Source: a virus
Direction: 5' to 3' (one strand)
Length of the DNA: 64,000 bases
Virus record (IMG/VR): IMGVR_UViG_3300044712_001218
Span: 9,402-73,401 of that record
The notes beneath the pieces were generated by a model. That model was given only the letters and a program-made list of their open reading frames with translations, did not search any database and was not told the DNA's origin. Positions 4,920 through 19,110 of this stretch are shown piece by piece (position 1 is the first letter of the stretch; each line of letters opens with the position of its first letter). The position numbers were made by a program, and so were the translations under genes.

Positions 4920-6451
4920 TTGAAAGGAAACTTATACAGGGTCTTATTATATCCACCCAATTCATTCAGCGTATTTATCAACACTGGAACATCCAGTTAA
5001 TTGAATCATCTGCTGCAAAAAGATTGGCTTCATGGATCATTATTTATTACGAGCAGTATAATAAAGCCCCGGGCAAGGATATAGAAGGAATATTCCTTGA
5101 ACGGGCAAGACTACTTGCTCCTGATCTTGCAGAAGATATTGAAAATATATTAGCAGAATTAAGTGATGAGTTTGAAGAGGAAGGATTAAACATAGATTAT
5201 TTAGTAGACCAAACCATAAAATATTTTAATGAACGTTCCCTCACTATTTTATGTGATCAGATACAGGCTAATCTACAAAATGGTGATTTAATTGAAGCAG
5301 AAAAACTAGCTATTGGGTATAAGAATATACAAAAGCAGACTGGTACATGGGTTGATCTAGGTTCTCCGGAGGTAATGGAAAAGATTGACCAAGCTTTTGA
5401 TATAAGCAACCAAGTGCTTATAAAATATCCACGAGCATTAGGAGAATTTTGGAATGATCAGCTGGTTAGGGGTGGCTTTGTTGCACTCATGGCTCCTGAA
5501 AAACGCGGCAAAACCTTTTGGTTGCTTGATCTTGCTATCCGAGCAGCAAGACAAGGCAGGAGAGTGGCATTCTTTCAAGCAGGAGATATGAGCGAAGGAC
5601 AGCAATTAAAGCGGATTGGTGTTTATCTGACTAAAAAGAGCAATATTGAGAAGTATTCCGGAAAGATGTTTGAACCGGTAAAGGATTGTATATTTAACCA
5701 GATGGGTACCTGTAAGAAAAAAGAAAGGGAATGTGACTCAGCTGTTTTTGAAGGAAGGACGGAAAAGGAATTAAGAAGAGAAATTACCATTGATGAGTTA
5801 AAAGAGGCCTATGAAGAGAATCCTGATTATTCTGCCTGTACTAATTGTGCGGAATATGAAGGTTCCAAATGGGGGTGTGTTTGGTTAAAGGAAGTTAATA
5901 CCGGGGCTCCCTTAACCAGTACAGAAGCCAAGGAAGCGGTAGGGGAATTCTTCGCCAAAGAATCAAGAAACTTTAGATTATCCACTCATGTCAACGGTAC
6001 CTTAACCGTCAGGGAAGCCTCCTCTATTCTGGAGATATGGGAAAGGCAGGATAATTTTGTGCCTGATGTCATTCTCTTTGACTACGCTGACATTATGATG
6101 GATAATGATCATACCAAAGAATTCCGACATAAACAGAATAACATATGGATGCAGCTTAGGGGATTATCACAGGAAAGATTTGCTTTGGTTATTACCGCTA
6201 CTCAGGCTGACGCTAACAGTTATACCAAGGATTTATTAAAACTGGAAAACTTCTCAGAGGACAAAAGGAAATATGCTCATGTAACCGCTATGTATGGCCT
6301 TAACCAAGATCATAATGGAAGGGAGAAGGCAATAGGTATTATGAGAATAAATGAGTTGGTGGTAAGGGAAGGAGACTTTAACAATAAGAATCAGATTAAC
6401 GTACTACAGAATCTTAAAAGAGGCATTCCATTCATTGGGAGCTATTGGTGA
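4916..6451 (+). CDS. Replicative DNA helicase (DnaB-like, SF4)
   Basis: Walker A APEKRGKT; ILFDYADIM; ITATQAD; FSEDKRK; Cys-rich insertion. Confidence 0.85.
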   Translation: MIERKLIQGLIISTQFIQRIYQHWNIQLIESSAAKRLASWIIIYYEQYNKAPGKDIEGIFLERARLLAPDLAEDIENILAELSDEFEEEGLNIDYLVDQTIKYFNERSLTILCDQIQANLQNGDLIEAEKLAIGYKNIQKQTGTWVDLGSPEVMEKIDQAFDISNQVLIKYPRALGEFWNDQLVRGGFVALMAPEKRGKTFWLLDLAIRAARQGRRVAFFQAGDMSEGQQLKRIGVYLTKKSNIEKYSGKMFEPVKDCIFNQMGTCKKKERECDSAVFEGRTEKELRREITIDELKEAYEENPDYSACTNCAEYEGSKWGCVWLKEVNTGAPLTSTEAKEAVGEFFAKESRNFRLSTHVNGTLTVREASSILEIWERQDNFVPDVILFDYADIMMDNDHTKEFRHKQNNIWMQLRGLSQERFALVITATQADANSYTKDLLKLENFSEDKRKYAHVTAMYGLNQDHNGREKAIGIMRINELVVREGDFNNKNQINVLQNLKRGIPFIGSYW

Positions 6452-6474
6452 AAATTAATTTAATAAATAAAATT

Positions 6475-7494
6475 ATGAAAGTAGAGGTAAAAGTAAAAGA
6501 TTTATTTCCTAATCCATATCGTAATATGAAAGAATATCCAGTGGATAGAGAAAAAATAGAAGCCCTTAAAAACTCAATAGAACAAACTGAATTTTGGGAT
6601 AATTTAGTAGCAAGAAAAGAAAATGGACAAATTCAAATTGCTTATGGTCATCATAGATTGATAGCTTTACAAGAGTTAGAGATAGAAAAAATCGGAATTA
6701 CTATAAGAGATTTAGATGATTCCACAATGCTTCAAATAATGGCCAATGAAAATATGGAGCAATGGAGTAGTTCTACTTCTGTAGTAATTGAAACCGTCAA
6801 AGCTACCCGGGATTTTCTAAACTCGGAATTGGCGAAGTATGATAGCTGGGAGGAATTTAGAGCTAATAGATTTATTAGCTCACTTATTGATGGTGAAAGA
6901 GGTTATAGAAGTGCTAAAGGGCAAGGTGTCGGTCAAACCACCATCCTCAAGTTCTTAGGGAAGAACTGGGAAAAGAAACAACATTTGATTCAGGATGCGT
7001 TGCATACATTGGATCTTATCAAAGATGATATAATTGATGAAAAGGCGATAAAACAATTAGAGGTAAAACATTTAAAAGAATTTACCTCCAACGTTGAAAA
7101 AAATAAGACATCAAAAAAAGACCAAGTAAAATATGCTAAAATAATAAAAGAGGAAGAAGTAAAAGCAAATAAAGTTAAAGATATTTTTGTGCGAGAAAAA
7201 TATGAAACACCTAAAAAAAATAAACTAGAATTAGATAATAGAAAAATAAAATTTGAGGATATAATAGCAGAAACAACTAATAATGCTGATGAATTATCTG
7301 AAAAACTAAAAATAATAATAAAATATAAAGAAGATTTTGATTCTGTTTACTATAGACAAACTATAGAGCGTCTTCGATTATTAATGAGTATAGATTCATT
7401 AAAAAAACAATTTGTAATATTAACTAAACAAATAAAAGAATATGAAGAAGAAACCGTCACTGGAGAAGATGATACTCTCCGTATTGGAAGATGA
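6475..7494 (+). CDS. ParB/Srx N-terminal domain protein
   Basis: PNPYRN...LKNSI...QIAYGHHRL.AL..L...MANEN; AT-richer than neighbours. Confidence 0.75.
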   Translation: MKVEVKVKDLFPNPYRNMKEYPVDREKIEALKNSIEQTEFWDNLVARKENGQIQIAYGHHRLIALQELEIEKIGITIRDLDDSTMLQIMANENMEQWSSSTSVVIETVKATRDFLNSELAKYDSWEEFRANRFISSLIDGERGYRSAKGQGVGQTTILKFLGKNWEKKQHLIQDALHTLDLIKDDIIDEKAIKQLEVKHLKEFTSNVEKNKTSKKDQVKYAKIIKEEEVKANKVKDIFVREKYETPKKNKLELDNRKIKFEDIIAETTNNADELSEKLKIIIKYKEDFDSVYYRQTIERLRLLMSIDSLKKQFVILTKQIKEYEEETVTGEDDTLRIGR

Positions 7495-7896: not shown

Positions 7897-8253
7897 ATGT
7901 TTAAAATAAGAAAAGAGTTTACTTTTTCAGCCAGCCATCAACTCAGAGGATTACCGGAAACACATCCCTGCAGTAGGCTTCATGGACATAATTACATAGT
8001 TACGGTGGAATTAAAATCTACCCATGTGAGTGATATTGGTTTTGTAAGGGATTATCATGAACTGGATGAAATAAAAAAGTATATTGATACCAAGTGGGAT
8101 CATAGACATTTAAACGATCAAATGTTGGATAATCCTACTGCTGAGAATATGGCCCAGCATCTTTTCATGACCTTTAAATCTCAGTTCCCGGAACTCTGTG
8201 CTATTGAAGTAAGTGAAACCCCCAAAACAAATGCCATTTATTATGAGTTTTGA
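7897..8253 (+). CDS. queD: 6-carboxy-5,6,7,8-tetrahydropterin synthase
   Basis: FSASHQL; C.RLHGHNY; DHRHLND; PTAEN; SETPKT. Confidence 0.95.
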   Translation: MFKIRKEFTFSASHQLRGLPETHPCSRLHGHNYIVTVELKSTHVSDIGFVRDYHELDEIKKYIDTKWDHRHLNDQMLDNPTAENMAQHLFMTFKSQFPELCAIEVSETPKTNAIYYEF

Positions 8254-9007
8254 AATAATTAAAGCAAACCCTGACTTTAAGAAGGAAGCTCCTTTTTCCA
8301 GCAATTTCTTAGAAGTAGCAGAATTCTTTTGCGATACCATACAAGGAGAAAATTTTATTGGTTATCCAGCAGCCTTTCTCAGACTTCAAAACTGTACATT
8401 AAACTGTGCGTGGTGTGACACTAGTGAAGTCTGGAGATATGGGAACCCTTATTCCTTTGATGAAATATTTGAGTTAATGGATCAGGCCGACCTACCAAGA
8501 AAGCTCCACGATGGTCAACATCTTATTTTAACCGGTGGTAGTCCATTAAAACAACAAATCCCATTAATTAATTTTATTGATGCCTTTATTACCTTATACG
8601 GATTTGGGCCTTATATTGAAGTGGAAAATGAATGTGTAGTAAGGCCCCTTGATAGGATGATAAATTATGTGGATTGTTGGAATAATTCCCCTAAACTATC
8701 TACCAGTGGTAATCCAAAGAGTAAAAGATATAAACCAGAGATATTGAAGATAATGTCTGAACTGGATAATTCTTGGTTTAAGTTTGTAATCACGGAAGAA
8801 TCAGATGACGATTGGAATGAAATAGTAACTGATTATTTAGACCCCGGTCTTATAAGAAAAGACCAAATCGTACTGATGCCATGCGGAGCTACCAAATTAG
8901 AGTTAGAGGAAAATAGGCAAAGGGTAGTTGATCTGGCAGTGGAATTCAACGTACGATATACAAGCCGCGAACATATAATTTTGTGGGATAAACGTACTGG
9001 CGTATGA
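8243..9007 (+). CDS. queE: 7-carboxy-7-deazaguanine synthase (radical SAM)
   Basis: TIQGE...FLRL..CTLNCAWCDT; LTGGSP; SPKL; REHIILW. Confidence 0.9.
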   Translation: MSFEIIKANPDFKKEAPFSSNFLEVAEFFCDTIQGENFIGYPAAFLRLQNCTLNCAWCDTSEVWRYGNPYSFDEIFELMDQADLPRKLHDGQHLILTGGSPLKQQIPLINFIDAFITLYGFGPYIEVENECVVRPLDRMINYVDCWNNSPKLSTSGNPKSKRYKPEILKIMSELDNSWFKFVITEESDDDWNEIVTDYLDPGLIRKDQIVLMPCGATKLELEENRQRVVDLAVEFNVRYTSREHIILWDKRTGV

Positions 9008-9363: not shown

Positions 9364-9408
9364 TTCTTTATTAATCATTTATTATAAACCAATTAAATTT
9401 TTTGACAA

Positions 9409-10203: not shown

Positions 10204-10215
10204 TTATTGCTCCCG

Positions 10216-10941
10216 ATGCGTAAAGTGGTCATAGGCTTAAGCGGAGGGATGGATTCGGCCACCCTACTGGGGTATTACCTCAGTTTGGGTGCCGAAGTCC
10301 ATTGTTGTTCTTTCTATTATGGTTCTAAACATGGTCAATGGGAAGGCAGAGCAGCCAATAATCTGTTTGAATTTTATAATCAAAGAGGCTTTCCGATCAT
10401 CCGTCATTTCTTTGACTTAAGATCAGTGTTTACGAATTTTCAATCTAATCTCCTCAAATCAGGAGGAGCTATCCCTGAAGGACATTATGATGATGAGAGC
10501 ATGCGTTTGACCGTTGTGCCGGGGAGAAATATGATTTTTGCTTCCATTATGGCAGGACTGGCAGAATCTATAAAAGCAGATACTATTGCCCTTGGGGTTC
10601 ATTCTGGAGATCATCATATATACCCTGATTGCCGACCTGAATTCATTCGTGCTTTAATGGATACTATTGAATTCTCCACTGATGGTGGAGTAAGAGTAGA
10701 AGCTCCTTTTATCTATGAAGACAAATCAACCATACTTAAAATGGGGTATGGTTTTGAACAAAATGTTCCATATCAACTCACCCGTACCTGTTATAAAGAT
10801 CAGGAGAAGAGTTGTGGAAAATGTGGTTCATGTACAGAAAGAATATTTGCATTTAATGAATTAGGATTACAAGATCCCATTCCTTATGAAAATGATTGGA
10901 ATATTGTTTTAAAAACTGCTTTAGCTCTAAAAGGAGAATAA
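10216..10941 (+). CDS. queC: 7-cyano-7-deazaguanine (preQ0) synthase
   Basis: LSGGMDS; VPGRNMIF; YPDCRPEF; TCY...CGKCGSC.ER. Confidence 0.95.
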   Translation: MRKVVIGLSGGMDSATLLGYYLSLGAEVHCCSFYYGSKHGQWEGRAANNLFEFYNQRGFPIIRHFFDLRSVFTNFQSNLLKSGGAIPEGHYDDESMRLTVVPGRNMIFASIMAGLAESIKADTIALGVHSGDHHIYPDCRPEFIRALMDTIEFSTDGGVRVEAPFIYEDKSTILKMGYGFEQNVPYQLTRTCYKDQEKSCGKCGSCTERIFAFNELGLQDPIPYENDWNIVLKTALALKGE

Positions 10942-10944
10942 AAT

Positions 10945-11670
10945 ATGCCTAATCCCAAAGATCCTATAAAACTTGCCGAATATAAAGAGAATATGAGAAA
11001 TATTGCTCTTGAAAAAGGGTATGGTAAATGGATGAAAGGACGTAAAAATACTCCCGGAGCTTTAGCATTGAATTTATATATTAAATCAATTAAAGGAGAA
11101 TTAATTAAAATGAGGAGAATCCACTATTGTATAGTATGTGGCTCCTCATTTTATGATTATCCTTATAAAAAAGGTTTAAAATTTTGTTCAAAAAGCTGTT
11201 ATTTGATAAATCATAAAAAATTACCAGAAGAAATTATTATCAAATTAATAAAAGCTGGTAAAAGATTACATCCAAAAAATGAGAGAATTTCAAATAATGG
11301 ATTTGCTAATCCTGAGAATAGAAAAGGGAAAACATATAACGAAATATATGGAGATGATGCAGAAAAAGAAAAATTAAAAAGAAGTTTAGGCCATTTAAAA
11401 AGATTTAAAAATAAACTTAGAAATGGATGTCGTGATAAAATAAATGGGGAAACTAAATATAAAATTTGGAGGAATACCATTTTTAAAAGAGACAATTATA
11501 CTTGTGTTGATTGTGGAAAAAAGGGAGGAAAATTACATGCTCATCATATTTATAATTGGGCCAAGAATCCTAAGTTAAGATATAGAACTTCCAATGGAAT
11601 AACTTTATGTACTAAATGCCATTCAGAAAAACACCCAAACATTAAAAAATTAATATTAAGTAATTCTTAA
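10945..11670 (+). CDS. HNH homing endonuclease
   Basis: [15 protein letters not shown]...LHAHHI...NGITLC..CH; very AT-rich insertion between queC and folE. Confidence 0.85.
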
Positions 11671-11674
11671 AATT

Positions 11675-12550
11675 ATGAATAAACTATATTTAACTTGGGA
11701 AGACGTAATGAATAAATTACGCACCGTAGACTTATTAAATAAAAAGGTCTACGGTGTCCCTAATGGCGGTATGATTGCTGCCGGATTCCTTAATTATGCC
11801 AAGAAGGTATATAAACCGGAATTTGCTGATATTATTCTTGATGATATTATTGATTCCGGAGGGACACAGAAGTGGTATAAGAAACAATTTCCCGATACCG
11901 TTTTTCATGCCTTATTTGATAAACAACTGGATCCTCAACTTCATGATCAGTGGGTAGTTTTTCCATGGGAAGCTCAACATCCTAATGGTGAGAATACAGT
12001 TCAGCATAATATTATCAGACAGCTCCAGTATATTGGAGAAGATGTTAATAGGGAAGGATTATTGAAAACTCCTGATAGAGTAGTAAAGATGTGGGGTGAA
12101 ATCTTTTCCGGATATGATAAAGATGCCAAAGAACTTCTTACCACCTTTGATGCTGACGGTTATGCTGATCATTATGATGAGATTGTACTATTGAAGGACA
12201 TTGAAGTTTATTCCATGTGTGAACATCACATGCTGCCTTTCTTCGGTAAAGCTCATGTAGCCTATATTCCTGGAAAAAAGATTGTAGGTATAAGTAAACT
12301 GGCAAGACTGGTAGATATGTATGCTAGAAGACTTCAAATACAAGAGCGTATTGGTGATCAGGTCACTTCGAGCATTATGGAGTTATTAGAACCAAAAGGA
12401 GCTGCTTGCATAATAGAGGCAACTCATATGTGTATGCGGATGAGAGGAGTTCAGAAGCAGAACTCTATTATGACTACCTCCAGCATGAAGGGAGCCTTCT
12501 TGGATAAGCCGGCCGCTCGTAATGAACTCATGGAATTAATACGGCGATGA
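11675..12550 (+). CDS. folE: Type I PRTase-like domain fused to GTP cyclohydrolase I
   Basis: N-terminal [25 protein letters not shown]; C-terminal [36 protein letters not shown]. Confidence 0.9.
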
Positions 12551-13599
12551 ATATTTATACCGCTGGGAATGTAGGAATAATTTCCCGTGAAAAAGCCTTA
12601 AGTAAGGTTATCCTTAGAAGACTATTATCCTTCTATGAAATACATGGGAAATTATTCGCTGCAGACCAATCATTTGAATTTATAACTAAAAAAATGGAAA
12701 GAAATAAAAAGGTAGAATTGTTTTTGGATTCAGGGGCTTTCTCTGCTTGGAGCCAAGGGGTTTCTATTGATATTAATGATTATATCCAATTTATCAAGGA
12801 AAATATGGCCGTAATAGGCATTTATGCCAATCTGGATGTCATTGGAGATGTCAGGGCAACTTGGAACAATCAAAAGATAATGGAGGCGGCAGGATTAAAG
12901 CCATTGCCCGTATTTCATTATGGGGAGGATGAAAAGTGGCTTGAGCGATTACTACGTCAGGGTTATGATTATATCAGTTTAGGAGGCATGGTTCCGATCA
13001 GTACAGATAATCTTATCCTTTGGTTGGATAGAATCTATTCCAAATATCTTACGGATTCAAAAGGAATGCCTTGTGTAAAAGTACATGGTTTTGGTCTTAC
13101 CAGTTTAAGACTAATGTTACGCTATCCTTGGTTCTCAGTTGATTCTACCAGTTGGGTAGTAACAGGGAGGATGGGAGGAATTTATATTCCACGTTTTCAT
13201 CATGGTCAATGGATGTATGATGAGAATTCATGGAAGGTGACTGTTTCAGGAAGAAGTCCTAACAAAATAAGTAAAGGAAAACATATATTGACTATGAATA
13301 TTCTTGAGAAAAAAGTATTTATGGATTATATAGAAATGAAGGGATACGCTATCGGTAAGTCAGAATTTAAAAAAGTTGATCAATCACATAAATTAGAAAA
13401 GAATGAAAAGTGGATTGATAAAAAGCCATCCAATAAAACAGTTAAAAGAGAAATGGAAATTATACTGGAACCTGGTATTTCTAATACTTACCAGTTACGT
13501 GATGAAATGAATATAGTATTTTTTAATGATCTTGAAAAAAGTATGCAATCATGGCCATGGTCTTTTAAAACAAAAAGTCAGAATTCAATATTTAATTAA
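12547..13599 (+). CDS. dpdA: 7-deazaguanine DNA transglycosylase (TGT-like, DpdA)
   Basis: FLDSGAFS; NLDVIGD; PVFHYGE; LGGMV; KVHGFG; [10 protein letters not shown]; next to queCDE/folE. Confidence 0.8.
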
Positions 13600-13624
13600 T
13601 CATAAACCTTTAAACATTAATCAT

Positions 13625-13990
13625 ATGTCAATAAAAGGAGCTAATTTTAGGTTAACTCGGGATTTAACTATACAAAATCCTGATTGGTCTTTAAGAAAAG
13701 TACGTTCTGTGATGGAAAGTAGAGGAGAAATAATTGAAAATGAAGCTTATCATTTATCCAGAACTCTTAGAAAATTCTTTAAAAAGTCTTTAAAGACAAA
13801 AGGAATTGTAAATGCTATTAAAGGAAATTATATTCCCGGAATCTCTAAAAATGATCTTATAGAAAAATTAAAAGAACAACAATTTGATGTATTTAAGCTT
13901 AGTGATACTATAACAAAACAATTTAATAATCTCAGGAGATGTGAAGAAGGATTTATAAAGCATGGTTATTGTATAAAGGAGGATAAATAA
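13625..13990 (+). CDS. Hypothetical basic protein
   Basis: ORF after dpdA, start MSIKG. Confidence 0.55.
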   Translation: MSIKGANFRLTRDLTIQNPDWSLRKVRSVMESRGEIIENEAYHLSRTLRKFFKKSLKTKGIVNAIKGNYIPGISKNDLIEKLKEQQFDVFKLSDTITKQFNNLRRCEEGFIKHGYCIKEDK

Positions 13991-13991
13991 A

Positions 13992-14474
13992 ATGACAAAG
14001 AGACAGGAAGATTGGGAAAAAGCACAGGAGAAGAGGGATGAGACTGCCAATGATCTTAACTTTTATCTACTCATCTCCGGACTATCATTCAAAAGAGTGG
14101 ATGATACCATTCATTATCAGTTAAATTCAAAGAATGGAAAGAATATTCCTTTTATATTTATGTACAAAGATAGTGGTGGATTCTATCTCAAAGTACCTAA
14201 GGAATTTCTGGATAATCCGGTAACCTACTTAGATCATCTGATAAAAGAAAACTACTACTCTATCATAGTAGATGGGGAAAATAGGGAATATACGGTTCCT
14301 ATTAGTTTTATGACCATCAAGAAATACTGGAAATGGAAAATGGAGACTTCGGAAGGAAATAAAAATAGAATGCAATTCCGTAGTTTAATAGGAAGAATGA
14401 CCTATCGTAGACCACTGGAAGGTTCTGCTTTTTCTCCATGCCTTGTTGATGAACTAAATAAACTCTTATCATGA
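13992..14474 (+). CDS. Hypothetical protein
   Basis: Coupled ORF with AGGAGG upstream. Confidence 0.6.
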   Translation: MTKRQEDWEKAQEKRDETANDLNFYLLISGLSFKRVDDTIHYQLNSKNGKNIPFIFMYKDSGGFYLKVPKEFLDNPVTYLDHLIKENYYSIIVDGENREYTVPISFMTIKKYWKWKMETSEGNKNRMQFRSLIGRMTYRRPLEGSAFSPCLVDELNKLLS

Positions 14475-14647
14475 ACATCTATTTGAGTACATGGTTAACA
14501 GATCGTTCCCTTGGAAACAGTATGACTAAGAAGAAAGCATCCAAACGATTGCTATCATATTTTTTCCTGAAGGAGCAGGATATTTCACAAGAACATTTTG
14601 ATGAATACGTAGAGACTGGGAGATGTGATCCTAGGAAAAGAAAATGA
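14471..14647 (+). CDS. Mini-protein 1, paralog of DpdA N-terminal module
   Basis: Manually read MNIYLSTW...KRLLSYFF; ATGA overlaps on both sides; absent from the ORF track. Confidence 0.65.
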   Translation: MNIYLSTWLTDRSLGNSMTKKKASKRLLSYFFLKEQDISQEHFDEYVETGRCDPRKRK

Positions 14648-14826
14648 AAATCTATTTAGCCGGAGTACCAAAAGCCTATGGGAAATTACCCTATAAGGTA
14701 CTTTTTAGTTACTTTACTATTAAATATCCTGACCAGAAATGGGGAGCTAAATCTAATTTTAACTATTATACCAATGAAAATATACTTAGCAGCAGTTTGG
14801 CCTCCCAATCATCTGAAGATAACTAA
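14644..14826 (+). CDS. Mini-protein 2, paralog of DpdA N-terminal module
   Basis: MKIYLAG...KVLFSYF. Confidence 0.65.
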   Translation: MKIYLAGVPKAYGKLPYKVLFSYFTIKYPDQKWGAKSNFNYYTNENILSSSLASQSSEDN

Positions 14827-14968
14827 ACGAGTTCTGCTTAGTTATTATGATTTAGATGTATCTACAATACCTTTTAGAAATGAAACCTTTAATACTATAA
14901 CCAATGCTAATAAACAAAAACGACCTCTTACACGCCTTAGAAGTAGTAAAACCGGGCTTAGCCAGTAA
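14774..14968 (+). CDS. Mini-protein 3, paralog of DpdA N-terminal module
   Basis: MKIYLAA...RVLLSYY. Confidence 0.65.
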   Translation: MKIYLAAVWPPNHLKITKRVLLSYYDLDVSTIPFRNETFNTITNANKQKRPLTRLRSSKTGLSQ

Positions 14969-15956
14969 AGAAATCATTGAACAGGCTACTTCCTTTGCCT
15001 TTATGGATAATCGGGTAGTAACCTATAATGATGAAATAAGTATTTCTCACCCAGTAAAAGACCTTGATGTTACTGGGGCAGTAAAAGCAGATAAGCTCTA
15101 CCAATTTTTAGGTAAGGTAAAGATTGATGAGATTGAGATTGTAGAAGAAGATAATGCCATTACTCTTACTACCGGTAAAGCTAAAGCTGGATTAGCAATG
15201 CAGGCTGAAATTAAACTACCTCTTGATCAGGTAGGAGATATTGAAGACTGGGAAGATTTGCCGGAAAACTTTATAGAGGCCTTAAAGTTTGTCTATCCTT
15301 CCTGTGGACATGATATGAGCCGACCCCTGTTAACCTGCGTCCATGTCAACCATGATGGATTTATAGAGGGTAGTGATAGCAATTGTATCACCCGTTATAC
15401 TCTGGAAGAATTTTCCTTTGATACCTTTTTATTACCTTCGAGTTCAGCATCAACTGTAGTAAAGCTTAACCCTACTCAAATATCGCTCGGGAAATCATGG
15501 GTACATTTTAAAACAGAGGATGACAGTATTATATCCTGCCGTATCTTTAGCAATAAGGATAAGTTTGTAGATACTACTCCATTTCTTGATGTGGAAGGAA
15601 TTGAGGTGACTCTTCCGGAAGCTATCACAGAAATAATGGATAGGGCTATGGTTTTTGCCAAGCAGGATCACCAGCTGGATGAAACCATTAAGATCACTCT
15701 GAAAGAAAGTAGGATGATAATGGAATGTAAATCAGAATCTGATAATTCCTGGTTTAGGGAGGAAGCAAGAATGAGATATAAACAGGATCCATTAACTTTC
15801 TTTATCACTCCTTATTTGCTTAACTGGATTATATCAAAGACAAAGGATTGTACTATTGCTGAAGATCGTTTGTGTTTTAAGAGTCCAGCAAAGGAAGAAG
15901 GAGATACCTCTGGTGATTGGATTTATGTAACGGCTTTGAAAAATAAGATTGACTGA
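14904..15956 (+). CDS. DNA sliding clamp (DnaN/beta-like)
   Basis: 350 aa; INKNDLL.AL..V; D.SRP.L.CVH...GSDS; clamp loader nearby. Confidence 0.75.
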   Translation: MLINKNDLLHALEVVKPGLASKEIIEQATSFAFMDNRVVTYNDEISISHPVKDLDVTGAVKADKLYQFLGKVKIDEIEIVEEDNAITLTTGKAKAGLAMQAEIKLPLDQVGDIEDWEDLPENFIEALKFVYPSCGHDMSRPLLTCVHVNHDGFIEGSDSNCITRYTLEEFSFDTFLLPSSSASTVVKLNPTQISLGKSWVHFKTEDDSIISCRIFSNKDKFVDTTPFLDVEGIEVTLPEAITEIMDRAMVFAKQDHQLDETIKITLKESRMIMECKSESDNSWFREEARMRYKQDPLTFFITPYLLNWIISKTKDCTIAEDRLCFKSPAKEEGDTSGDWIYVTALKNKID

Positions 15957-16798
15957 TGATCAGGGGATACAGCTTAATAAGTCTCGGGGTAGGAGTTCAG
16001 AGTTCTGCTCTCTACTATATGAGTTCTATGGGAATTCTACCAAGAATAAATATGGCAATCTTTGCCGATACTGGTGGAGAGAAGTCTAAAACTCTGGAGT
16101 ATTTACAATACCTGCAAAAGTGGAAGAAGGATAATAATGGAATACCAATTCATGTGGCAAATTTCATTAATCTGGAGAATGACTTATTAAGGGAGGATGA
16201 AGGCAGATTTTCTTCTATTCCGGCTTTTACTCTTAATGAAGATGGAGAGAAAGGAATGCTCAGACGTCAATGTACCGGAGAATATAAAATAGCCCAGATT
16301 AACAAGAAGTATCGAGAGCTGATGAAACTGGGTAATAAGTATTTCCCTAAAACAGAAGTGTGGATAGGAATTACTCAGGAGGAGAAAGATAGAATGGCCA
16401 TCCCGCTGGAGCAGTGGAAAATAAATGTATATCCTTTCTGTGGATATAAGATTTATCACGATGGTCACTTTGAGCTATTTCCAGGTTTTGAATCAACCCG
16501 TACTTCTATTCTTTCGTGGTATAAGGAGAATAATCTTCCAATCCCTGAGAAGTCTTCCTGTAAATTTTGCCCATTTCATGGCTACAATAGCTGGAAGAGA
16601 CTTAAGGAGATAAGTCCTAGTGATTTTGAAGATGCCTGTAAAGTGGATGATAAGATAAGACATTCATCCATGAAAGGAGTTAAGAATCCTATCTATCTCC
16701 ACGAGTCTTTAAAACCACTAAGAGAAGTAAAATTTAATACCCGTACCATTGGATTCTTTGATGATCACGGTAATTGTTCTGATAATTGTGGAATATGA
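15956..16798 (+). CDS. PAPS-reductase-like PP-loop protein
   Basis: SLGVGVQSS; IFADTG.E; RQCT.EYKI; WIGI..EE..R; KSSC.FCPFH. Confidence 0.75.
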   Translation: MIRGYSLISLGVGVQSSALYYMSSMGILPRINMAIFADTGGEKSKTLEYLQYLQKWKKDNNGIPIHVANFINLENDLLREDEGRFSSIPAFTLNEDGEKGMLRRQCTGEYKIAQINKKYRELMKLGNKYFPKTEVWIGITQEEKDRMAIPLEQWKINVYPFCGYKIYHDGHFELFPGFESTRTSILSWYKENNLPIPEKSSCKFCPFHGYNSWKRLKEISPSDFEDACKVDDKIRHSSMKGVKNPIYLHESLKPLREVKFNTRTIGFFDDHGNCSDNCGI

Positions 16799-19110
16799 GC
16801 GGATTTTTTACAAAAAAGGAAACTGAATCAAAGACTAGACCAGATGGTCGAAATCTTTCCTGTATTTCTTGTGGACTTTATAAGAATTGTAATTCCCCTA
16901 GAATGAATCCTTATGGTGAATTCAAAAAGGGAATTATGGTGGTTGGAGAAGCCCCGGGAGAAATAGAAGATAGCCGGGGTAAACCTTTTCAGGGAAAGAC
17001 TGGGAAGCTTCTTCAAAGAACTTTGGCAAAGTATGGAATAGATTTATTTGAAGATTGTGTTAGTTTAAACTCAGTTAATTGCCGGCCGGAGGATAATAGA
17101 ACTCCTAGTACTTATGAAATGGATTGTTGTAGATCAGTCAAAGTAACCAAAGCTATTGAGCAATATAAACCAAAGATCATAATTGTACTTGGTGGAAGTG
17201 CCTTATATAGCATAATAGGAAATAGATGGAAAAAGGAATTGGGTGGAATAACGAAATGGAGAGGGTTTTGTATTCCGGATCAAGATTTGCATTCGTGGGT
17301 TTGTCCGGTATTCCACCCATCTTTTGTCGAACGTGATGATACCGGAGTAGCTCAGGTAGTATGGGAAAATGATCTGCAGGAAATATTTAAACTGATTGAG
17401 GATAAAGTTCCTTTCCCAATTTATAAGAAACCTAAAATTGAAATAATAGATGATCTGCAGATTCTTGATACTATCAAATCTACCAGAATCGCCTTTGATT
17501 ATGAGACTACCGGATTAAAACCTCATGGATTAGGACAGGAAATAGTATGTTGTTCAATAGCTCCTTCATCAAATATGGCCTACTCCTTTATGATGCCATC
17601 TACAAGGATAGAGAGGATGCCATTCATTAGACTCTTACGGAATCCACTAATTGAGAAAATGGCACATAATTGTTTACATGCACGATCATTAGTATTAATG
17701 GCAGATGGAAGTAAGAAATATATAAGTTATTTAGTCAATAATAAAATTAAAGACCCGGTATTGTGCTTTAATACAAAAACAAAGAAGATTGAAGAAAAAC
17801 CTATAATAAATTGGTATAAAGAAGAAGATTCTAAAGTGATTTGGAAAAAAGTAATTACAAAAAATAGTATTAATGGAAAACAATCACATTGCTTAACTAA
17901 TGACCATAAAGTATACACTATTGAAAGAGGAATGGTAAAAGTAGATGATTTAAAAATAGGAGAAAATCTTTTAATAAAAAAAGAAGGACTATCTGATATT
18001 CAATTGCAATTAATATTAGGGAGTGGATTAGGTGATGGGAGTATAGTTTTAAATAAGAAAAATAATAAGGCAAAAAATGCATATTTTGTAGTTACACATG
18101 GGGAAAAACAAGAACAATATATAAAATGGAAAAGAAAAATATTAAATAATATAAGTGATGATGTAAAGAAGAAAAATAATAATAAAGGATTTAGTAGAAA
18201 AGATGGAATATCTTACGCTTTTCATACTAAATCTCTACCAGAAATCACCCCATTAAGAAGACAACTATATAGTAGAAATGGAAAGAAAATAATAACAGAA
18301 ACATATCTTAATAAATTAGAACCATTAGCATTAGCAGTGTGGTATATGGATGATGGTTCTGTTTATAAAACAAATATGAATTTACATATTGCCGGATATT
18401 CAGAAACCTCTTGTGAAAAAATAATTGAATATTTTGCTAAAAAATATGAAATATATTTTAGATTAGAAAGAGATTCATTTAATAAACCAAGAACTTTACA
18501 TTTGGGTAAAAAAGCAGGAGGTTATAAATTTTGTGAATTAATAGCGCCATATATTCATGATGATTTAAAATATAAAATTCCAAAATATTATAAAAAGGAG
18601 GTGGGAAAATTAGTAAATAAAGTAATTAATAGTCAAAAGAATTATACCCAATCAGAAATTACTGATATAATTGATTCTGTTCCAAGAATGTCTAAAAAGA
18701 TTAAATTTTGTATAGAGGTTCCTGATAACCATAATTTCTTTACAACTATGGGATTAGTGAGTAATTGCAAATATGAAGAAACATGGAGTGCTGTTAAACT
18801 TAGACAACCGGTAAAGAATTGGATTTGGGATACTATGTTAGCAGCCCATATATTTGATAATCGACCGGGGATAACCAATCTGAAGATTCAAACTTATCTT
18901 ATGTTTGGAATCATTGATTATGCCAGTGAAGTTTCTCCCTACTTAGAAGGAGTAGGAGAGGGAGGGAATTCGTTAAATAGAATAAAGGAGTTATTGAAAC
19001 TTCCCGGTGGAAAAGTTAAAGTATTAACTTATTGTGGATATGATTCAGTATATCAATATAGATTAGCAGAATTACAAATGTCAAAAACTAATTTTGACTT
19101 GCCCTTTTAG
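16795..19110 (+). CDS. Family 4 uracil-DNA glycosylase + 3'-5' exonuclease (N-terminal half of split DNA polymerase A), with intein
   Basis: C..C.L...C Fe-S motif, VGEAPG..E...G.PF.G..G, FHPS; ExoI FDYETTG; ExoII AHN/CKYE; DTMLA; ExoII-III Y...D. Confidence 0.9.
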   Translation: MSGFFTKKETESKTRPDGRNLSCISCGLYKNCNSPRMNPYGEFKKGIMVVGEAPGEIEDSRGKPFQGKTGKLLQRTLAKYGIDLFEDCVSLNSVNCRPEDNRTPSTYEMDCCRSVKVTKAIEQYKPKIIIVLGGSALYSIIGNRWKKELGGITKWRGFCIPDQDLHSWVCPVFHPSFVERDDTGVAQVVWENDLQEIFKLIEDKVPFPIYKKPKIEIIDDLQILDTIKSTRIAFDYETTGLKPHGLGQEIVCCSIAPSSNMAYSFMMPSTRIERMPFIRLLRNPLIEKMAHNCLHARSLVLMADGSKKYISYLVNNKIKDPVLCFNTKTKKIEEKPIINWYKEEDSKVIWKKVITKNSINGKQSHCLTNDHKVYTIERGMVKVDDLKIGENLLIKKEGLSDIQLQLILGSGLGDGSIVLNKKNNKAKNAYFVVTHGEKQEQYIKWKRKILNNISDDVKKKNNNKGFSRKDGISYAFHTKSLPEITPLRRQLYSRNGKKIITETYLNKLEPLALAVWYMDDGSVYKTNMNLHIAGYSETSCEKIIEYFAKKYEIYFRLERDSFNKPRTLHLGKKAGGYKFCELIAPYIHDDLKYKIPKYYKKEVGKLVNKVINSQKNYTQSEITDIIDSVPRMSKKIKFCIEVPDNHNFFTTMGLVSNCKYEETWSAVKLRQPVKNWIWDTMLAAHIFDNRPGITNLKIQTYLMFGIIDYASEVSPYLEGVGEGGNSLNRIKELLKLPGGKVKVLTYCGYDSVYQYRLAELQMSKTNFDLPF
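17671..18765 (+). mobile_element. Intein with LAGLIDADG homing endonuclease (365 aa)
   Basis: Starts CLHARSLVLMADG; block B LTNDHK; LGSGLGDG and WYMDDG; ends HNFF...VSN followed by Cys+1. Confidence 0.9.

Follow-up and report, generated by a model that had tools for sequence, protein, structure and literature searches.

A phage dpdA locus with three small overlapping genes that resemble the first quarter of the DpdA barrel: candidate alternative subunits of a DNA 7-deazaguanine transglycosylase

In phages, DpdA is the hallmark of DNA modification with 7-deazaguanines; according to PMC10516641, sequence specificity is known for only one DpdA. The same paper reports that phage CAjan swaps 32% of its guanine for preQ0 and that the DpdA1 of phage phiSM is inactive, and insertion of preQ0 into DNA has been described for a bacterial DpdA (PMC10164549). 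Here we describe a dpdA locus in a window of 64 kb (the whole stretch of DNA analysed, positions 9,402 to 73,401 of the 73.4-kb virus record IMGVR_UViG_3300044712_001218; G+C 36%), in which three small overlapping open reading frames (ORFs), 0.9–1.2 kb from dpdA, appear to encode paralogues of the N-terminal part of the enzyme itself. On the reading we favour, to which we give a probability of roughly 60%, these mini-proteins are alternative barrel quarters that act in trans on a six-stranded DpdA core, the core being supplied here from an internal start at position 12694. The coordinates of all features are collected in Table 1.

The dpdA product matches phrog_887 (E 4.9e-57, residues 26–298), is up to 42% identical to the DpdA proteins of cultured phages in tblastn searches (38.4% for CAjan DpdA, E 2e-47) and about 30% identical to a Cellulophaga phage DpdA, and the genes for preQ0 synthesis (QueD, QueE-like, QueC and FolE) lie directly upstream. 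Judged by sequence, it is a phage DpdA1-like enzyme and no equivalog of bacterial DpdA. Against the bacterial DpdA equivalog model NCBIfam NF041059 it scores 23.9 bits, the cut-off being 200 (E 1.7e-5, residues 133–204 only), and because there is a single cysteine in the 350-residue translation it lacks the structural CxCxxC...H zinc site of the bacterial protein (PMC10164549).

Two AlphaFold2 (AF2) models of the enzyme were built. In the first, made from an alignment that mixed classes of N-terminal module, the core folded well and residues 1–50 were left unplaced, with a predicted local distance difference test score (pLDDT) of 46–65. In the second, for which the alignment was limited to similar module classes, the same residues reached a pLDDT of 87–93, with a mean of 87.1 and a predicted template-modelling score (pTM) of 0.84 for the model as a whole. 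The barrel of the second model has eight strands, two in the module (residues 2–6 and 24–28) and six in the core (57–61, 92–94, 122–124, 142–146, 178–182 and 197–201), and its residues 1–335 align with residues 40–363 of the tRNA-guanine transglycosylase (TGT) of Z. mobilis. Matches to TGT structures have Z-scores of 15.5–16.4, among them 7nq4_A (Z 16.4, root-mean-square deviation (rmsd) 3.6, 255 residues aligned) and 4hsh (Z 16.1, rmsd 3.5, 246 aligned). With the first model, core residues 50–336 matched Z. mobilis TGT 91–365 (4htb, Z 11.6, rmsd 3.3, 203 aligned) and bacterial DpdA (7ui4) was found at Z 11.8 (rmsd 4.9, 241 aligned).

Because of the modelled strands and the TGT alignment, the N-terminal module (about 49 residues, MxIYxAG ... 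RLLSFY) is, in the model, the first quarter (β1-α1-β2-α2) of the TGT/DpdA triosephosphate isomerase (TIM) barrel, much as a first-pass annotation of the sequence had proposed in taking it for the first strands of a TGT-type barrel. The core alone is modelled as the other six strands, β3–β8, including both conserved aspartate motifs: Asp61, in the DSG after β3 (part of the FLDSGAF motif, residues 59–65), and Asp199, after β8, are invariant in a 66-sequence alignment and are, going by the structural alignment, what we take to be the counterparts of the catalytic Asp pair of TGTs.

Each mini-ORF repeats the pattern of the DpdA N-terminus, with a start motif (M-[NK]-I-Y-L in the mini-ORFs) followed 13–20 residues on by a second motif, [KR]-x-L-[LF]-S-Y-[FY]. 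The first-pass annotation had drawn attention to this array, and dpdA, the three mini-ORFs and the internal ATG at 12694, with its A-rich leader ahead of FLDSGAF, all lie where it had placed them; it had read the DpdA motifs correctly as MNIYTAG and RRLLSFY but had put 17 residues between them, where we count 16. The overlaps between the mini-ORFs are also as it described: the stop codon of ORF1 and the start codon of ORF2 share the sequence ATGA, and ORF3 begins within ORF2 in a different frame and runs on into the clamp gene (an in-frame ATG further upstream, at 14678, would extend ORF3 to 96 amino acids). The ATGA overlaps, between the upstream gene and ORF1 and again between ORF1 and ORF2, suggest coupled translation.

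The resemblance is greater than expected by chance. A regular expression for the two motifs finds exactly four matches in the six frames of the window, namely dpdA and ORF1–3, and none in 200 first-order Markov simulations. A hidden Markov model (HMM) trained independently on 49 DpdA N-termini, none of them from the window, returned the same four as its best matches across the whole 73.4-kb genome (DpdA 1.7e-14, ORF1 3e-4, ORF2 1.3e-3, ORF3 8.8e-3), the next lying at 0.18. Since the motifs are kept through synonymous change (serine, for instance, is encoded by TCC or TCA in some copies and by AGT in others, that is, TCN versus AGY), conservation is at the level of the protein, and the earlier remark that the copies diverge in DNA whilst retaining both motifs holds. 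The mini-ORFs match no Pfam, PHROG or NCBIfam family, the ESM Atlas gave neither a usable match nor a model for them, and blastn of positions 12400–15100 against cultured phages gave none.

To place the array among related phages, IMG/VR was scanned with an alignment of DpdA, yielding 324 relatives, the best 80 of which were retained. In these 80 loci an iterated module HMM made 238 matches at a domain E of at most 1e-3, every one of them on the strand that encodes DpdA; the same HMM detects ORF2 (2.1e-4) and ORF3 (1e-3), both absent from its training set. At E ≤ 0.01 there are 232 modules in the 72 unique loci, a set in which the window is represented by its copy L003. A core is fused to 30 of these modules; the 202 free ones lie upstream of it in 58 cases and downstream in 144. 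Different phages share recognisable classes of module, among them those that we call E, G, H and D: class E accounts for 50 copies in 47 loci, not one of them fused, others for 21, 17 and 17 copies, and two classes are mostly fused. Between one and five free distal modules are present in 63 of the 66 loci with at least 2.5 kb of downstream DNA (a count over 73 unique loci, the window included). Two other accounts of the array are rejected. A DNA-level repeat or promoter motif does not fit the synonymous-site variation or the absence of opposite-strand matches (0 of 238), and a single frameshifted gene does not fit the separate ATG of each unit or the orthologues that are called as separate small proteins.

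The three classes present in the window can each be followed beyond it. For class E, Trp8, Leu27 and Ser29 are invariant in an alignment of 36 sequences, and a profile search detected, among 1.84 billion representatives, 334 proteins of the class at E ≤ 1e-3 (cluster representatives at 50% clustering). Class G has three called homologues of 57–62 amino acids that are 64–69% identical to ORF2; its alignment has 26 invariant columns, and conservation ends exactly where the start of ORF3 overlaps in the other frame. Called homologues of class H have 55–78 amino acids and are 58–66% identical to ORF3, with orthologues at the same position in the related loci L072 and L021; ORF3 itself was not among the proteins that the search of a protein collection returned. 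In locus L072, whose DpdA is 51% identical to that of the window, FolE is followed by a free proximal module, then by a short DpdA, a homologue of the 160-residue protein that precedes the array, the E, G and H modules and the clamp, in an order and with overlaps as in the window. The E-G-H array is also found in two further contigs, and the closest relative, L137 (DpdA 65% identical, same class of fused module), has an E-D-H array. On these comparisons of sequence, ORF1–3 are genuine genes that have been conserved, and their products, of about 50–60 residues, are each a paralogue of the first quarter of the DpdA barrel (β1-α1-β2 and, in part, α2).

Selection was gauged by Nei–Gojobori counts on the same genome pairs for the mini-ORFs and the DpdA core. 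The ratio of non-synonymous to synonymous differences per site (pN/pS) is 0.17–0.46 for E, 0.11 for G (against L072) and 0.17–0.68 for H, compared with 0.35–0.41 for the core. The mini-ORFs are thus, by these counts, under purifying selection, and the neutral ratio that the first-pass annotation had named as the mark of decayed duplicates is not what is seen. That the ORFs are functionless copies of the dpdA 5' end in the course of decay would fit their shortness, their overlaps and their lack of Pfam, PHROG or NCBIfam families, but we regard it as scarcely credible: distinct classes are conserved among phages whose DpdA proteins are just 51–65% identical, pN/pS resembles that of the DpdA core, and the 334 E-class representatives were counted at 50% clustering.

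The modules also keep company with the enzyme. When IMG/VR was scanned with just the E pattern, 44 loci were confirmed, and a DpdA core lay upstream on the same strand in all 44; scans for G and H gave 14 loci on 11 contigs, again with a same-strand upstream core in every case (G 4/4, H 10/10). No occurrence independent of dpdA, which the first-pass annotation would have counted against its proposal, was therefore found. It had also offered a recombination reservoir as an explanation, in which silent cassettes recombine with the dpdA 5' end and so swap the N-terminal module. Some features fit: every module keeps its own ATG, even in tandem fusions (L002; P0137, P0151, P0161), proximal modules differ among related phages, and array content differs between close relatives (E-D-H in L137, E-G-H in the window). 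We nevertheless hold a reservoir to be very unlikely, and the claim is disfavoured by the behaviour of class E, which is never found at the expression site (0 of 50 copies fused in the loci). Among the best 150 of the E-class representatives, 147 have at most 117 amino acids, and of the three longer ones, one consists of two modules and the other two are fused to unrelated sequence, the DpdA core motif being absent from all three. Moreover, DNA identity between modules is too low for homologous exchange, blastn of the region finds nothing, and each mini-ORF has the start codon, stop codon and coupling overlap that an expressed gene would have.

That a free module could take the place of the first quarter is supported by structure prediction for class E. 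Complexes of the DpdA core (residues 50–350) with the E protein, modelled with self-built, unpaired alignments, gave docking scores of 0.90, 0.89 and 0.90, against at best 0.00 for three controls; the partner has a pLDDT of 85–87, and at least 97% of contacts are common to the runs. Of 80 solved complexes, 58 attain the mark used for this score, as do 2 of 110 mismatched pairs, a calibration that is rough here since our own alignments were used. In the models, E residues 25–30 pair with core residues 57–62 (β3) and E residues 2–4 with core residues 197–199 (β8), so that the E protein is predicted to complete the core barrel between β8 and β3. The trans complementation put forward in the first-pass annotation is thus predicted for class E (ORF1).

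A different suggestion, that the mini-proteins are a shared piece of fold put to some other purpose, such as contact with the clamp or the polymerase, whose genes follow the array, draws on the location of the array between dpdA and the clamp gene in the window, L072, L021 and L001. We consider it quite improbable, given that a lone β-α-β piece, its strand edges exposed, would probably be unstable, that the modules are linked to a DpdA core in 44/44 and 14/14 loci, and that docking to the core is predicted at 0.90 against 0.00 for the control in which chain 1 was replaced.

If the mini-proteins are instead trans-acting barrel quarters, they need a core with a vacant slot, and here the internal ATG (Met50) comes into play. 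The closest 120 homologues of the window's DpdA include 57 long forms with the N-module and 61 short forms that start 7–12 residues before FLDSGAF. In 55 of the 57 long forms a methionine is found 7–13 residues before FLDSGAF, whereas about 18% would be expected for a span of seven residues. We infer from the sequence that a core-only protein is also made from Met50, to be joined by one of the E, G and H proteins. The quarter is missing from half of the closest enzymes across the wider clade, and of 68 loci with sufficient upstream DNA, the proximal module is fused in 25, present as a separate ORF or frame or in part in 22, and not detected by the HMM in 21, about 12 of which are truly core-only by eye.

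In the mechanism we propose, a mini-protein would insert its two strands between β8 and β3 of the core, giving a closed barrel, and the phage would make a single-chain enzyme with its cis module plus up to three alternative two-chain enzymes, each consisting of the core-only product from Met50 (12694) and an E, G or H protein. The β1/α1 and β2/α2 loops lie on the barrel face that is catalytic and turned towards DNA, and because of this position alternative quarters might alter the hold of the enzyme on DNA or on its target nucleotide. In bacterial DpdA, the β1/α1 insertion is described as contributing to the DNA-binding surface and the β2/α2 insertion as flanking the active site, where it may confer sequence specificity (PMC10164549); in a relative, residues 68–73 are reported to line the pocket (PMC5395182), and the module takes the place of the stretch in which these positions lie.

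The same slot could also be occupied for another reason, namely that the mini-proteins are regulators or competitive inhibitors that time or limit modification rather than conferring new specificities. The docking geometry is equally compatible with this, the enzyme of the window already has a cis module that is placed confidently in the model, and the module classes differ most in their catalytic-face loops. On the other hand, no class has lost either of the two strand-end motifs directed at the active site, and the roughly 12 of 68 related loci judged core-only by eye have free modules but no proximal one, so that β1–β2 could come there from the free modules alone. On balance, we think regulation an unlikely explanation.

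Several points weigh against the trans-acting quarters that we prefer. The cis module is confidently modelled in the barrel of the window's own DpdA, such that a free slot would need either a core-only product or a displaced cis module. The predicted docking may stem from likeness to solved single-chain TGT/DpdA folds. Taken individually, ORF2 (1.3e-3) and ORF3 (8.8e-3) are weak matches to the independent HMM. As to selection, most pairs are saturated for synonymous divergence (dS), the ratio reaches 0.68 in one H comparison and overlapping frames confound the G and H counts. The 80 loci were picked by DpdA likeness, and their counts describe this clade only. A tblastn search with class E against 50,697 cultured-phage records found nothing, and cultured DpdA1 phages have an enzyme of one chain and no spare modules, in contrast to the three extra free quarters of the window.

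Going further, the locus might encode a combinatorial DNA-modifying enzyme, with one six-stranded core and a repertoire of interchangeable quarter-barrels, each reshaping the DNA-facing side, by which 7-deazaguanine would be placed in several sequence contexts, or several deazaguanine bases would be used. The repertoire would be reshuffled between relatives to outpace host restriction, and the whole would constitute a TIM barrel that is split by nature and has a choice of subunits. This extension is tentative, and we hold it to be possible but rather doubtful. Should the mini-proteins prove to be alternative barrel quarters, specificity would be set by a swappable subunit of 50 residues; a natural TIM barrel built from a core and one of several alternative pieces would be of interest for protein evolution and design; and many 'N-truncated' DpdA genes, together with unannotated small ORFs in viral metagenomes, would find an explanation. 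In annotation, overlapping genes for proteins of about 60 amino acids are easily missed. The first-pass annotation knew of no description of such an arrangement, and our search of the literature, as far as it reached, likewise found no account of a split DpdA or of mini-genes of this kind.

Some peculiarities of the modules and cores in related loci are recorded here. The Arg-Glu-Arg-Glu motif of many modules is encoded as an (AG)4–8 tract, and several frames break there (for example L001 4180–4300 and 4333–4420); L007, L008, L013, L065 and L068 have modules with such tracts near the DpdA start. An (AG) tract occurs in 50 of the 232 module windows; over 995 kb of the same strand such tracts number only 46, and (CT)n tracts are absent. 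These tracts suggest slippage-based on/off switching or else errors of assembly; no (AG)n tract occurs in the modules of the window itself. In L001 (3005–3100), the proximal module has an in-frame TGA where other modules have glycine or alanine and the frame continues into the core, so the TGA may be a stop that splits module from core, a recoded codon or an error. Finally, the open frame of the DpdA core (stop to stop) spans about 630–690 codons, around twice the usual length, in L130 (2462–4489), L108 (3260–5335) and L119 (420–2315), the long frame of L130 having no Pfam family.

Table 1. Features of the dpdA locus, in window coordinates
Feature	Position	Strand	Remarks
QueD	7897-8253	+	Pfam PTPS, 6.4e-30
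Radical-SAM QueE-like	8213-9007	+	Pfam Radical_SAM/Fer4_12, ~3e-5
QueC	10207-10941	+	Pfam QueC, 5.7e-50
HNH endonuclease	10945-11670	+	Between QueC and FolE; Pfam HNH, 2.9e-7
FolE	11675-12550	+	GTP_cyclohydroI, 3.6e-72
dpdA, phage DpdA1-like DNA 7-deazaguanine transglycosylase (by sequence)	12547-13599	+	350 aa; single chain with its own N-terminal module in cis
Cis N-module, residues 1-49 (modelled)	12547-12693	+	β1 (2-6), α1 (12-18), β2 (24-28), α2 (39-51)
Internal ATG, Met50, candidate start of core-only DpdA	12694-12696	+	Preceded by an A-rich stretch
DpdA core, residues 56-350 (modelled)	12712-13596	+	Strands β3-β8 and clade-specific C-terminal part
Uncharacterised gene	13625-13990		Between dpdA and the array; no family match
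Conserved gene, function unassigned	13992-14474	+	Between dpdA and the array; 160 aa
Mini-gene 1 (ORF1), E class	14471-14647	+	58 aa; ATG overlaps the stop of the upstream gene
Mini-gene 2 (ORF2), G class	14644-14826	+	60 aa, conserved part ~47 aa
Mini-gene 3 (ORF3), H class	14774-14968	+	64 aa from the MKIY start; overlaps mini-gene 2 and the clamp gene
Clamp (sliding clamp) gene	14904-15956	+	

The wider setting is given in Table 1. One strand carries a full preQ0 pathway, dpdA, two uncharacterised genes, the three mini-ORFs, the clamp gene, a PAPS-reductase-like gene and an intein-bearing polymerase gene, with the stop of FolE and the start of dpdA overlapping as ATGA. All large genes of the window are open under translation table 11. 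A scan for promoters and terminators gave 19 promoter-like sites (12.4 ± 3.5 expected) and a sole terminator-like site, inside dpdA. Matching reads originate from rhizosphere metagenomes, and fragments from a second run are identical to the window, with zero differences. The 160-residue protein encoded ahead of the array is 31% identical (E 1e-16) to the product of the syntenic L072 gene (9071–9595) and is apparently present at the same place in L021; it belongs to no Pfam, PHROG or NCBIfam family.

A number of other observations concern the neighbouring genes. The HNH endonuclease gene is likely a mobile insertion, because L001 and L002 have no counterpart at that place. FolE has an N-terminal extension of about 110 residues (11675–12010), common to L001 and L002, with no Pfam match at E ≤ 0.01; a DDIIDSGGT-like stretch within it is reminiscent of the phosphoribosyl pyrophosphate (PRPP) loop of phosphoribosyltransferases. 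The ORF at 16786–19110 (774 amino acids) combines a uracil-DNA-glycosylase-like domain (E 5.8e-20) with an intein carrying a LAGLIDADG endonuclease (E 1.2e-32), and its counterparts in L001 and L002 lack the insert of about 350 residues. Upstream of the preQ0 genes, a protein of 349 amino acids (6445–7494) has a ParB N-terminal domain (E 9e-11); a ParB-fold domain has been described for bacterial DpdB, the partner of DpdA (PMC10164549).

Amongst characterised systems, the single-chain phage DpdA1 enzymes (those of CAjan, Microcystis phage Me-ZS1 and Pseudomonas and Stenotrophomonas siphophages) are nearest to that of the window, belonging to the same family with 38–42% identity over 76–77% of the query. 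The CAjan and Me-ZS1 proteins begin, like the window's DpdA, with the same N-module in cis (tblastn alignments start at query residue 3–5), and the cultured DpdA1 phages share the gene order FolE, dpdA, clamp, polymerase. In CAjan, two small ORFs flank dpdA but, unlike the mini-ORFs of the window, they are without the module motifs. The C-terminal 80 or so residues of the window's DpdA are specific to its clade, none of 242 cultured-phage records covering at least 80% of the query. Bacterial DpdA (7ui4), from the Dpd restriction-modification system, shares the (β/α)8 TGT-like fold but is a single chain of more than 400 residues that acts with DpdB and has a zinc site, which the window's DpdA lacks. 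The TGTs (Z. mobilis TGT, human QTRT1 and archaeal ArcTGT) provide the best fold matches, at 12–15% identity, and their residues ~40–90 are the counterpart of the N-module; they act on tRNA as single chains and have an N-terminal β-sheet lid that is absent from the DpdA described here.

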